Below are positions 34,301-37,300 of a stretch of 64,000 nucleotides of DNA, in pieces (the first letter of the stretch is position 1; each line of letters starts with the position of its first letter). This DNA is from Fimbriimonadia bacterium (GTDB taxonomy: Bacteria; Armatimonadota; Fimbriimonadia; Fimbriimonadales; JABRVX01). The position numbers were made by a program. The stretch is from positions 74,188-138,187 of the forward strand of contig JBGPGO010000012.1 of assembly GCA_041483895.1 (NCBI GenBank). The letters run 5' to 3'.

Positions 34301-37300
34301 TGCGTTCATCCCCGCAATTGCGCCAATGGCAATTCTTAGGGTGAAAAGTGTTGTTGTTGCCGCAATTCTTGCCTCGAGTACCTTCTTCGCATTCGGATGG
34401 TTCGCGCTGGCGTCGTTTTGGATTCGGCGTCGTCATGAGTTTGAGGCTGATAGGACATCGCTCGATGTCACAGGCAGTCTCCCAGACGTGATCTCTATGC
34501 TGAACAAAGCACACGCCGGCGAGACGGATTTCGAATTGGATGAAACGAGCACTCATCCGAAGATGGAAAGACGGATCCAGGCGCTTCGAGAGTACGCGAA
34601 TCGCGCCGGCGGTTGATTTCCAACTGCTTCGCGTTTAGTCTGAGTCTGTGCCACCTACATTGCCATGCAAGTGCTTCTGCGTGTATCCTGTATCAACTAT
34701 GCCCATAGAAGTAGACCTGCGAAGCGATACGGTGACCCGGCCGACGGCGGAGATGAGGAAGGCGATGGCGGAGGCGGAGGTCGGCGACGACGTCTTTGGC
34801 GACGACCCAACCGTCAACCGGCTCCAAGAAAAGGCCGCCGCCCTGTTCGGCAAAGAGGCCGGGCTGTTCGTCCCCACCGGAACGATGGGCAACCAAATCT
34901 GCATCCGTACCCACACCAAACCCGGCGACGCCATCCTGATCGACGGAGAAAGTCATATCGCTTACTATGAAGTCGGCGGCCCGGCTGTTCTGTCGCAGGT
35001 GATCACCGATATGGTGCCCAGCCATAAGGGGGTCTTGGACTACGACGCCGTCGCCGCGAGGATCCGGCCCCAGTCCGACCACACTCCGGGCACCACGCTG
35101 CTTTGCCTGGAAAACACCCACAACCGAGCCGGCGGGACAATCCAACCGATCTCGCACATCCGCAAACTGAGTTCCCTGGCCCACGAAGCCGGAATGAAGG
35201 TGCATCTGGACGGCGCGCGCATCTTCAACGCCTCCATCGCGTCGGGCACGCCGGTTTCCGACTACGCCGGCTGCGCGGATTCCCTGATGTTTTGCTTTTC
35301 CAAAGGGCTGGCCTGTCCGGTCGGGTCCATGGTTCTCGGGACTCGGGAGTTCATCAACCGGGCTCATCGGGTGCGGAAGCTGTTCGGCGGCGGAATGCGG
35401 CAAGCGGGTGTTTTGGCCGCCTGTGGGATGGTTGCTTTGGATACAATGGTAAATCGGCTTGCTGACGACCATCACCGTGCGAAGGTGCTGGCGAAGGCTA
35501 TCAATGACCTTCCGGGGCTGAAGGTGGATATGGAAACTGTGCAAACGAACATGGTTTTCGCCGAGACCGACTTTCCGGCCAAGGAGATGCAGGATACGCT
35601 GCAAGCACGAGGAATTCGCATCCTAGCAATTGGGCCGAAGATAATTCGTATGGTACTTCACAATGATGTGGATGACGAGAAGCTGACGGTCGCCATCGAT
35701 GCGTTCCGATCCGTACGAATTGCCGGTTCGTAAAAAAAAAGTCGCGAACTGCCCTAAAGTTCTGAATTTGGCCATCCGATACTGAAGATTGACTATTAGC
35801 TCTGACAGCTCAAGGCAAACCCGCAGCGATGCGGGGACGCAAAGCCAAGGATCCCCCGTGGACAGCCTGGTTGCCTGTCTGAGACTTATCAACGACCAAG
35901 AGAGGGTTTAGCTGATGAGAATCTCAGACACTGAATATACGAAAGTACTCCAGATGGAACAAGACGGCGAATTGCCGATCTCCAATATCGAAGCTACCGC
36001 CACTCCCCTGCAAACCGACGACGCCGAACTGGTCGCCCGGATTGTTGAGGAGTTGGAGGCCGAACCGGACGTTCGCGAAGAAATGGTTGCGGACCTGAAG
36101 GCGCGCATCGACGCCGGAACCTACAAGGTTACGGACGAGGCGATCGCGGATCTAATCATCCGCCGGTCCAAAGCAGACAACATCCGCTGAATCCTTGCGA
36201 GGAAGAGCCGACCTGCGCGTCGAATGAGCGTGCGTGGCGATTTGGGGCGTTGTAAACCAGAAGGGCGGCGTAGGAAAGACTACAACTGTGGTCAACCTTG
36301 CCGCCGCTTTGGGTTTGGAGGGTCAGCGAGTGCTAGTCGTTGATGCCGACCCCCAAGGCAATACCACGACTGGCTTCGGCGTCGGCAAATCCAAGCTTCA
36401 GTCGAGCCTTTTTGAAGTTTTGGTTGACGGCGTTTCGGCGTCCGAAACGATTGTAGCGACTTCCGTACCGAATGTGAGTCTGCTGCCAGCGACATTGGAT
36501 TTGGCGGGATCGGAGTTGGCTTTGATGGGGCGTCTTTCCCGGGAGACCGTGCTGCGACAGGCGCTTGAACCGATTGCGGGCGACTATGAATGGGTGATCA
36601 TCGACAGTCCGCCTTCGTTGGGACTGTTGACGGTCAATACCTTGGTTGCTTCCCGGTACCTGTTGGTGCCCATGCAGTGCGAATTTTATGCGCTCGAAGG
36701 ACTGACCCAGCTAATCCGGACTATTGAGCTCGTTCGATATCAGCTCAATTCATCGCTGGAGGTCAAAAAAGTGCTGTTAACAATGTATGATCCTCGAACG
36801 CGGCTGGCGGTTGAGGTTGCTCGCGAGGTCCGTGGTTTTTTCGGCTCCGTCGTATCCGACATTTTTGTACCTCGGAACGTTCGGTTGACGGAGGCCCCAG
36901 GATTTGGAGAGCCCAGCGTCGTTCGGTCACCAAGCGCACCGGGCAGTAAGGCGTATATTAAGTTGGCTAAGGAGATGATCGCAGATGCTACGTAATCCAT
37001 TGGGGAGAGGGCTTGTCGAGCTGCTCGGTGAGGGCAGTGACAATATGATCCGCAACGCCCCCATTGACAAGTTGATCACGAACCCGTATCAGCCTCGGCA
37101 ATCGTTTGATCCCGACCAGCTTCAAGAGTTGGCGAGGACAATCCAAGAATCCGGTATTTTGCAGCCGCTGGTTGTTCGGCGCAAAGGCCATGAGGAGTAT
37201 GAGATCATCGCCGGCGAGCGTCGGTATCGTGCGGCAAAATTGGCCGGCTTGGAAACGGTGCCCGTCATCGTGCGGCAGGCGAACGACGAGCAGATGTTGG

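Follow-up and report, generated by a model that had tools for sequence, protein, structure and literature searches.

We describe a candidate three-part cassette in which a sigma-28 (FliA)-type promoter, a c-di-GMP riboswitch predicted to act as an ON switch, and flgM, a gene of the anti-sigma-28 factor family, would together limit sigma-28 at high c-di-GMP, a reading to which we give a probability of about 0.68. It lies in a window of 64,000 nucleotides from a Fimbriimonadia bacterium (contig JBGPGO010000012.1), the window being the whole stretch of DNA that was analysed. The identity of the aptamer, the FlgM family, the promoter motif, the conservation and the absence of a U-run terminator are read from sequence. 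In the proposed mechanism, RNA polymerase with sigma-28 (FliA) would transcribe a short leader carrying a canonical c-di-GMP-I aptamer, followed by flgM. At low c-di-GMP, the start and first codons of flgM would capture the 3′ strand of the P1 helix and bury the ribosome site, leaving little FlgM and free sigma-28. Binding of c-di-GMP, a bacterial signal for settling down, would stabilise P1, release this strand and increase translation of FlgM, which would bind and inhibit sigma-28, also at the promoter of flgM itself. Since FlgM would rise only with c-di-GMP and would repress its own promoter, the sigma-28/FlgM negative loop would be closed only at high c-di-GMP. The parts of the locus are:

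34648-35733, + strand: beta-eliminating lyase (threonine aldolase-like), the upstream neighbour, context only.
35754-35759, + strand: CTAAAG, -35 box of the sigma-28 (FliA)-type promoter, a motif match to the published consensus.
35775-35782, + strand: TCCGATAC, -10 box of the sigma-28-type promoter, 31 nt 5′ of G20.
35800-35883, + strand: c-di-GMP-I aptamer with extended P1, from the covariance model (core match 35805-35879) and the fold; P1 pairs 35800-35808 with 35875-35883 with one U-U mismatch; landmarks are G20 at 35814, the GCGA tetraloop at 35826-35829, A47 at 35841 and C92 at 35874.
35877-35891, + strand: switch strand, made up of the P1 3′ side and 8 further nt, predicted from folds and covariation to pair with 35913-35929 when ligand-free.
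35900-35906, + strand: Shine-Dalgarno-like GAGAGGG, 8 nt 5′ of the ATG and inside the predicted OFF hairpin (sequence and folds).
35913-35929, + strand: anti-P1 strand, the flgM start codon with codons 2-5.
35915-36190, + strand: flgM, 91 aa, anti-sigma-28 factor family, sole copy found in the genome and unlinked to flgN.
36234-37833, + strand: parA (36234-36995) and parB (36985-37833), starting 43 nt past flgM; not a conserved part.

The earlier note had placed a riboswitch directly upstream of flgM and called it the only c-di-GMP riboswitch of the genome, and both statements hold. Rfam model RF03167 matches 35805-35879 with 60.8 bits, the ATG of flgM (35915) follows 35 nt past this match, and the ORF is a Pfam FlgM; RF01051 has a single match at E<=1 in this 95%-complete genome, in which the c-di-GMP-II riboswitch gave no match. 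With the sigma-28-type promoter just 5′ of the aptamer, the unit comprises promoter, aptamer and flgM.

Conservation within the order Fimbriimonadales proved stronger than had been claimed. Matches to RF01051 occur in 122 of its 151 genomes, and 121 of the 127 matches are directly 5′ of a FlgM-like ORF (the gap is 9-45 nt for 119 of them, and 81 and 86 nt for the other two). When genomes missed by RF01051 were checked by a FlgM profile and a sequence pattern, the riboswitch-flgM unit was found in 128 of the 136 flgM-bearing genomes of the order, with eight genomes having a flgM-like gene without the aptamer. Elsewhere in the phylum, 41 genomes from 13 further families carry the unit, and the layout was found in named records of Fimbriimonadia, Chthonomonadia and Armatimonadota. 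A pattern combining promoter and aptamer matched at least 120 stretches; among the 80 with DNA, FlgM is next in four, all of them from Armatimonadota, and none of the 74 loci from other groups has it in this small sample. Furthermore, riboswitch, flgM, fliA and flagellin are jointly absent from genus g15 (0/6) and from genomes G125, G136 and G138.

Neighbours of the riboswitch-flgM unit differ among genomes. A consensus scan of the + strand found no terminator-like site, neither within the leader nor in the flgM-parA interval, and read-through from flgM into parAB is possible. With parA only 43 nt past flgM, and the same order in 20 loci of family f4, the parAB operon could be imagined as the real target with flgM as a leader gene. 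This is scarcely credible, because parA comes next in only 21 of 121 loci and flgM in all of them, and the predicted pairing covers the start of flgM itself; as a part that is not conserved, parAB was rejected as the target.

Judged by its sequence, the aptamer is a canonical c-di-GMP-I riboswitch, and established knowledge of this class suggests that it binds c-di-GMP. It scores 58.1 bits with RF01051, 23 bits above the gathering cut-off of 35, and 1.8 bits above the cut-off of 59 with RF03167. The ligand contacts G20, A47, A48 and C92 are all present (G at 35814, AA at 35841-35842, C at 35874), as are an AAA linker between the hairpins, a GCGA loop on P2 and the G14-C93 pair (35808-35875). 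G20, A47 and C92 are described as c-di-GMP contacts in the available text of PMC3764141 and PMC5888326. Among flgM-linked aptamers, G20 and A47 are found in 121/121 and C92 in 119/121, with a G-A-U pocket in 2/121 and G47 in none of the 121 orthologues. The conserved A23-A25 run and G42 of the P2 internal loop are present here and in 3/3 members of family f1 and 25/25 of f4. Family f2 mostly lacks them (the run in 78/80, G42 in 77/80) and family f5 lacks the GNRA loop in 11/12, so affinity is uncertain in these two families.

The earlier note had labelled the RNA a GGC variant and presented its ligand as open. In the 2017 PNAS work of Weinberg, the GGC name reportedly stands for G20/G47/C92. 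RF03167 does give the best raw bit score here, 2.7 bits ahead of RF01051, and leads in 6 of 16 loci scanned; U occupies position 92 in two members of the order (G007, G028) and in G220. That the RNA is a GGC variant whose ligand is different or unknown, or a sensor of 3′,3′-cGAMP, is nevertheless highly improbable given the invariant G20 and A47. At the first P2-P3 linker base the Rfam consensus is G in RF03167 and A in RF01051, and this base is A here (35841) and in 121/121 flgM-linked aptamers. The label also flips between near-identical sister RNAs (L018 GGC, L019 canonical), and all five stand-alone GGDEF proteins of the genome retain Asp in the GHxxGD motif, where Ser marks cGAMP-making enzymes. 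The variant and cGAMP readings were therefore rejected, and with a canonical pocket the ligand is no open question in the sense claimed earlier; as a warning, canonical aptamers may receive the Rfam GGC label as an artefact of scoring. The c-AMP-GMP (GEMM-Ib) class was rejected as well, since it needs A at the G20 equivalent, a contact made in Gs1761 according to the available text of PMC5888326, and G is found in 121/121.

The sigma-28 consensus, given as -35 TAAA and -10 GCCGATAA in the accessible part of PMC8325347, was searched as TAAA-N15/17-GCCGATAA, set at a constant distance from the 5′ end of the RNA. Allowing at most two mismatches, this untrained consensus lies 5′ of 68 of the 121 loci, compared with 4 of 598 control windows. 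A locus-trained matrix exceeds the 99th percentile of controls in 120/121 loci, a circular figure obtained on the training loci, and in 29 of 31 loci outside the training set. The promoter at 35754-35782 is the sole zero-mismatch site of a promoter search pattern in this genome, and the RNA unit is presumably transcribed from a FliA-dependent start near 35789.

The product of the ORF at 35915-36190 belongs, on its sequence matches, to the FlgM family. It reaches 47.3 bits with Pfam FlgM (PF04316; cut-off 25), which also recognises 51 of 53 aligned members at E<=0.01, and the FlgM profile matches PDB chains 1RP3_B and 9WSF_B; past these matches, the C-terminal tail holds an invariant Arg84 and Asp88. 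No other FlgM match, and no second, canonical flgM beside flgN, was found in this 95%-complete genome, where the flgI-flgJ-flgN-flgK operon is without flgM and fliA stands alone. A single FliA per genome is found in 139 of 151 genomes, and this genome encodes FlhA, five GGDEF proteins and an HD domain. Co-folding of FlgM with FliA gave 0.57 against 0.00 for the best control, with at least 66% of contacts agreeing and a partner pLDDT of at least 60 in the runs; this support is weak and, because a similar complex is already solved, may stem from that structure. In calibration, 51/78 solved pairs and 2/108 mismatched pairs reached the mark, and at <=0.60 there were 5/78 solved pairs against all 4 passing mismatches. 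From established knowledge, FlgM would inhibit FliA and expression of sigma-28 targets would be lowered.

Folding and covariation both point to a translational ON switch. For 101 of 121 leaders, the free ensemble is predicted to need over 1 kcal/mol more than the aptamer-constrained one to open the initiation region, with 19 neutral and one reversed (OFF-like). With one leader per genus, 46 of 49 native values lie above the mean obtained with shuffled downstream sequence (3.7 versus 0.65 kcal/mol); for this genome the values are 16.5 and 9.8. A further set of 31 loci has 22 ON-like members and one that is OFF-like. Beyond the order this signal weakens, with 23 of 31 loci above their own null. 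Across the 121 leaders, the predicted pairing places the P1 3′ strand on the coding sequence (55), the 5′ leader on the initiation region (29) or the P1 3′ strand on the Shine-Dalgarno side (24), with seven others and six without any, so that three distinct pairings in different lineages share one polarity. In this genome, the P1 3′ strand is predicted to pair over the AUG and codons 2-5 without ligand, and since a hairpin stays over the AUG in the ligand-bound fold (35885-35897 with 35905-35919), the predicted switch is partial. A platform based on an intrinsic terminator was rejected, given the absence of a U4 run between aptamer and start in 121/121 leaders and the negative consensus scan.

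The covered AUG in the bound state, together with the 20/121 neutral or reversed leaders, would also suit a switch that is OFF, or one whose point of action is transcription (by Rho or RNA stability) and not the initiation of translation; from established knowledge, buried and untranslated flgM RNA could attract Rho. We regard this as improbable, given that OFF-like leaders number 1/121 and U-run terminators 0/121, that a covarying helix competes directly with P1, and that more sigma-28 inhibitor at high c-di-GMP matches the usual logic.

Within the gene, one silent base of a Ser codon changes in step with the switch strand. In 52 leaders with a long P1 strand, picked by that strand from 81 examined, 95.7% of cells pair with start+7 to +15, compared with 26-47% for slid alignments. 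In 51/52 the third base of the Ser4 codon is the pairing partner of position 98 (shuffle mean 41.2; the observed 51 is reached in 0/5000), and the FlgM tree shows four independent double changes of this pair, two from UA to CG and two from UA to GC. Ser4 is TCA in 44/52, compared with 21/282 for other Ser codons of these genes. Position 101 is weaker (44/52, 98/5000 shuffles) and a genus-level swap test was modest (121.8 versus 117.3 cells, 4/300). The OFF helix is mostly invariant, its coding side is also constrained by the protein, and covariation is clear at position 98 only.

It had further been proposed that the riboswitch sets flagellar sigma-28 activity. The aptamer is indeed placed to control flgM, now across the phylum, but the word 'flagellar' was an overstatement, because most sampled flagellins lack a recognisable sigma-28 promoter and five genomes without flagellin or FlhA retain the cassette. 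That c-di-GMP would raise FlgM is well supported; that this rise would shut flagella off is less well supported. No clear flagellar sigma-28 regulon was found in this genome, where matrix matches are mostly at chance level and both flagellins score low (-1.1 and 2.8). From established knowledge, the sigma-28 targets affected may be one flagellin class in some genomes, and by analogy FlgM may be exported by the flagellar secretion system.

We lean against, but take seriously, a mainly non-flagellar output of the same ON switch, through a small and partly non-flagellar sigma-28 regulon (compare WhiG in Rubrobacter), with the main flagellin under another regulator and c-di-GMP-induced FlgM altering filament composition or surface lifestyle. 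It is compatible with our preferred cassette and differs from it in the last step only. A good sigma-28 site is absent from 14 of 21 parsed flagellin starts, several of which have, by eye, a repeated CCC-GTAAT-like word instead. The five genomes that keep riboswitch-flgM without flagellin or FlhA (G055, G086, G092, G106 and G116) include four with FliA, and G055 is one contig, 99% complete; the separation of flgM and fliA from the flagellar operon points the same way. Against it, 7/21 flagellin starts do have the promoter (score >7.7) at 48-84 nt, one scoring 29.8, the cassette is lost jointly with flagellin and fliA as described above, and four of the five flagellum-less genomes have lower promoter scores (4.8-15.9, against a mean of 23.4), which fits decay.

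A broader reading, speculative and in our view rather unlikely, makes the riboswitch the main sigma-28/FlgM input across Armatimonadota. Here flgM would have moved out of the flagellar operon into a self-limiting cassette that stands alone, and three unrelated pairings, one in silent flgM codon positions, would keep it ON; in lineages without the export apparatus, where secretion of FlgM would be impossible, RNA-sensed c-di-GMP would replace the assembly checkpoint and drive a non-flagellar sigma-28 regulon. If true, this would be an RNA-level counterpart, of independent origin, of the RsiG-WhiG switch.

Known routes from c-di-GMP to flagellar-type transcription are FleQ-like regulators, the Cd1 riboswitch of Clostridioides difficile and RsiG-WhiG. 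If our cassette reading is true, it would add a further solution, in which a riboswitch within its own feedback loop turns on an anti-sigma factor, one that is fixed throughout a phylum with nearly unstudied gene regulation and cheaply testable with a 156-nt leader and exact compensatory positions. Among the literature matches listed, there was no report of a riboswitch 5′ of flgM, the scope excluding subscription papers, gene-association supplements and RegPrecise-type tables. Up to now this control point has been described through a protein alone, and the cassette probably reaches it by RNA.

The RNA resembles RF01051 and Vc2 of Vibrio cholerae, as portrayed in the available sections of PMC1950547 and PMC3764141, in its two-hairpin fold, G20/A47/C92 pocket, AAA linker, G14-C93 pair atop P1 and GYRA loop without the 11-nt receptor. 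RF03167 is of the same clan and gives the top raw bit score, its linker G being A here. It differs from RF01051 and Vc2 in that the target is an anti-sigma factor (in the 2007 gene table, the row for pili and flagella does not list flgM), the platform is predicted to use flgM codons, and one target is fixed phylum-wide rather than scattered. The protein resembles FlgM in complex with sigma-28 (Aquifex 1RP3; 9WSF) in its Pfam family, its matches to both PDB chains and, as elsewhere, a sigma-28 promoter on flgM; unlike the usual FlgM, the gene is not before flgN and has an extra C-terminal tail and a riboswitch leader.

Cd1, before the flgB operon, is likewise of class I and lowers sigma-28 (SigD) output at high c-di-GMP, the outcome predicted here. 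According to the available text of PMC5386303, Cd1 lies behind a sigma-A promoter, turns transcription OFF and thereby removes sigD with the early operon, and flgM of C. difficile depends on SigD, the text making no mention of a riboswitch for it; the switch described here is instead predicted to be translational and ON, behind a sigma-28-type promoter, and to add an inhibitor. In RsiG-(c-di-GMP)2-WhiG of Streptomyces and Rubrobacter, c-di-GMP also inhibits a sigma factor of the flagellar clade via an anti-sigma factor, and the promoter consensus is shared. The accessible part of PMC8325347 describes this, as of 2021, as the sole known sigma/anti-sigma complex targeted by c-di-GMP. RsiG itself binds c-di-GMP, and its fold is not related to that of FlgM (PMC7005675, available text), whereas in the cassette c-di-GMP is predicted to act on the mRNA and so to set the amount of the anti-sigma factor.

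The unit is a promoter, an aptamer and flgM, the gene for the anti-sigma-28 factor, with the following window positions.

35754-35782, plus strand: sigma-28-type promoter CTAAAG-N15-TCCGATAC, a sequence match with an inferred start site
35805-35879: c-di-GMP-I aptamer, with pocket bases G20 at 35814, A47 at 35841 and C92 at 35874 (Vc2 numbering)
35915-36190, plus strand: flgM ORF (Pfam FlgM, 47.3 bits), starting 35 nt past the aptamer, as an earlier note had it
19279-19352, minus strand: tRNA gene with a CAU anticodon, a separate observation

The earlier note called the aptamer a GGC variant (RF03167). 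Its score of 60.8 bits was reproduced, just over the Rfam cut-off of 59, and the same RNA passes the RF01051 cut-off of 35 by a wide margin, at 58.1 bits. The letters GGC presumably denote the bases at positions 20, 47 and 92. The linker that joins the two hairpins starts with G in the Rfam consensus line of RF03167 and with A in that of RF01051; in the window it starts with A (35841). The GGC label is best in 6 of 16 loci scanned, and two near-identical sister RNAs receive different labels. With A47 in the pocket and a label that flips between sisters, the variant identity was rejected: the flgM-linked RNA is a member of RF01051, not of RF03167. Passages in PMC3764141 and PMC5888326 give G20, A47 and C92 as ligand contacts, and one in PMC1950547 describes the linker of c-di-GMP-I RNAs as virtually always AAA. 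The ligand is very probably the canonical one, c-di-GMP. This RNA is the sole RF01051 match at E<=1 in the source genome (95% complete), in which no c-di-GMP-II riboswitch was found, so the description of it as the genome's only c-di-GMP riboswitch holds.

Some aptamers depart from the canonical form. C92U shifts aptamer preference towards cGAMP, and a G-A-U pocket occurs at loci L086 and L089 (genomes G007 and G028) and L198 (G220). P2 varies in families f2 and f5 (for example, L066, L093 and L076): most f2 members have other bases in place of the A23-A25 run and of G42, and 11 of 12 f5 aptamers have lost the GNRA loop. Members of both families consequently score close to the Rfam cut-off or below it.

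Within Fimbriimonadales, 127 RF01051 matches were found in 122 of 151 genomes, and all 127 loci were retrieved. Directly before a FlgM-like ORF lie 121 of them (121 genomes, all five families), with G20 and A47 in 121/121 and C92 in 119/121. Among the other six, two are weak and four (L002, L004, L005, L009) are additional c-di-GMP-I riboswitches of f2 genomes, with high scores, that precede a subtilase (Peptidase_S8) gene. The FlgM profile matches 15 of the 30 remaining genomes: the aptamer is upstream in seven (a pattern detected six; that of G048, near the end of a contig, was recognised by eye) and absent upstream in eight, where three FlgM matches are weak. In total, 136 genomes have a flgM match, 128 of them with the aptamer before the gene, and 15 of the 151 have no FlgM match. 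The order-wide conservation claimed earlier is thus borne out and extends further. In 137 sampled genomes of the phylum outside the order, at least 41 of 106 FlgM-like matches (41 genomes, 13 families) have a same-strand riboswitch in the 400 nt before them, with 150 of 167 riboswitch matches listed. Among the matches listed, all 41 fall within the 52 FlgM-like matches that include a C-terminal tail, and none of the 54 shorter ones is riboswitch-linked. Among the pattern matches listed, FlgM follows the promoter-plus-aptamer pattern at 4 of 80 named loci, all Armatimonadota, and at none of the 74 from other groups. Neighbours of flgM vary, with parA downstream in 21 of 121 loci. The riboswitch-flgM arrangement is real and conserved across much of the phylum.

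For 68 of 121 aptamers, the upstream sequence holds the flagellar sigma-28 consensus published in PMC8325347 (from a passage of that paper) at <=2 mismatches, compared with 4 of 598 control windows. A matrix trained on the flgM loci passes 120 of these same 121, which is circular, but also 29 of 31 loci that did not enter the training. Of the 151 order genomes, 139 have one FliA each. The source genome has a single FlgM match, located outside its flgI-J-N-K operon, and the FlgM profile matches PDB chains 1RP3_B and 9WSF_B. A FlgM-FliA co-fold gives their binding weak support, at 0.57 (best control 0.00), in a range (<=0.60) oftener wrong than right, and a similar complex has already been solved; contact agreement between runs was >=66% and partner pLDDT >=60, and the co-fold mark is reached by 51/78 solved and 2/108 mismatched pairs. 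The tail common to riboswitch-linked FlgMs, which extends past the part matching solved FlgM structures, has invariant Arg84 and Asp88 (window 36164-36178, alignment A1).

No U4 run occurs between aptamer and start codon in any of 121 leaders. In the source genome's free fold (z -2.9), 35877-35891 pairs with 35913-35929 over the AUG and codons 2-5, enclosing the SD-like GAGAGGG. The aptamer needs 35875-35883 for its helix P1, and therefore the two folds compete. Opening the initiation region is predicted to cost 16.5 kcal/mol free and 9.8 bound; the bound fold keeps a hairpin over the AUG, so on paper this switch is partial. Fold prediction makes 101 of the 121 leaders ON-like (easier to open with the aptamer formed), 19 neutral and one OFF-like. 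Because any constrained structure tends to free the downstream window, the downstream part was shuffled as a null; in 46 of 49 genera the native value lies above the mean of the shuffles (3.7 versus 0.65). At 31 further loci, 22 are ON-like and one OFF-like, 23 exceed their own null and all have A47; six other pocket calls differ from G-A-C, among them G220 with U92 and three in which, judged by eye, the pattern was misplaced. At low c-di-GMP, the P1 3' strand would pair over the AUG and codons 2-5 with the Shine-Dalgarno sequence enclosed; bound c-di-GMP would stabilise P1, remove this pairing and make initiation easier.

Among 83 f1 and f2 leaders, two with divergent FlgM were excluded and the 52 of 81 with a long P1 strand analysed. 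Nine columns pair with start+7 to +15 in 95.7% of cells, compared with 26-47% when slid. In 51 of 52 leaders the base at position 98 can pair with the third, silent base of the Ser4 codon (0/5000 shuffles; UA 43, CG 5, GC 3), and on a FlgM protein tree of few columns and many open forks this pair changed independently, twice to CG and twice to GC. This codon is TCA in 44/52 leaders versus 21/282 other Ser codons of the same genes. Covariation is weaker at position 101 (98/5000 shuffles) and in a swap test (4/300), and several anti-P1 columns are fixed by protein sequence. Elsewhere, burial is predicted by other pairings: in 24 leaders, mostly f4, the P1 3' strand covers the Shine-Dalgarno side, and in 29, mostly one f2 subgroup, the 5' leader covers Shine-Dalgarno and start. 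That different pairings are predicted to reach the same polarity is the strongest argument for ON control, which is probably exerted at translation.

Flagellar genes are present in the source genome, as are five GGDEF proteins and one HD domain. The riboswitch had been proposed to set flagellar sigma-28 activity; its conserved place before flgM supports control of that gene, but the flagellar part was overstated: only 7 of 21 parsed flagellin upstream regions (25 examined) score above 7.7 for a sigma-28-type site. The source genome's two flagellins score -1.1 and 2.8, and three more regions -2.3 to 0.3. Five g3 genomes (98-99% complete) keep the cassette with no flagellin or FlhA found, and four have FliA. 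Weak flagellin promoters and these genomes argue against a simple flagellar shut-off. The joint absence of riboswitch, flgM, fliA and flagellin in genus g15 (six genomes, 65-96% complete), G125, G136 and G138 speaks for flagellar output, and a mainly flagellar output is somewhat favoured.

Repeated CCC-GTAAT-like words, seen by eye and often upstream of flagellins without a sigma-28 site (L378, L385, L388, L389, L129, L130), are a possible site of another regulator. At G000:C18:23208-26248 of the source genome, flgK-flgL is followed by genes like fliW and csrA (labelled by eye from N-termini), which suggests FliW-CsrA control of flagellin. A candidate second c-di-GMP-responsive sigma is encoded at G000:C3:259128-260405 (L132:1411-2685), where a GGDEF domain that is degenerate but keeps its RxxD site is joined to sigma regions 2, 3 and 4. 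Orthologues occur in 53 of 61 order genomes; none was found in g15 (0/5), G037 and G055, all without flagellin, or G050 (92% complete).

In deep-branching Actinomycetota (L223, L234, L242, L269, L275, L298), a WhiG/sigma-28-type -10 box lies immediately before a c-di-GMP-I-like aptamer, downstream of which is a gene whose N-terminus resembles that of type IV pilins (by eye); Rubrobacter records hold similar promoter-aptamer pairs. Since the word 'riboswitch' does not occur in PMC8325347, these pairs may add to the RsiG-WhiG regulon an RNA layer that has gone unnoticed.

Our literature search, covering open papers without supplements, found no report of a riboswitch before flgM, and passages of a 2025 review (PMC12564702) give no such target. 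The whole mechanism, a c-di-GMP-I riboswitch raising FlgM and so holding back sigma-28, has a probability of roughly two in three. In C. difficile, Cd1 lowers sigma-28 output when c-di-GMP is high (passages in PMC5386303); the predicted flgM riboswitch would also lower it, by a different step. In RsiG-WhiG, c-di-GMP acts through an anti-sigma (passages in PMC7005675 and PMC8325347), as it would here, again at a different step. These are known parts in an apparently undescribed wiring.
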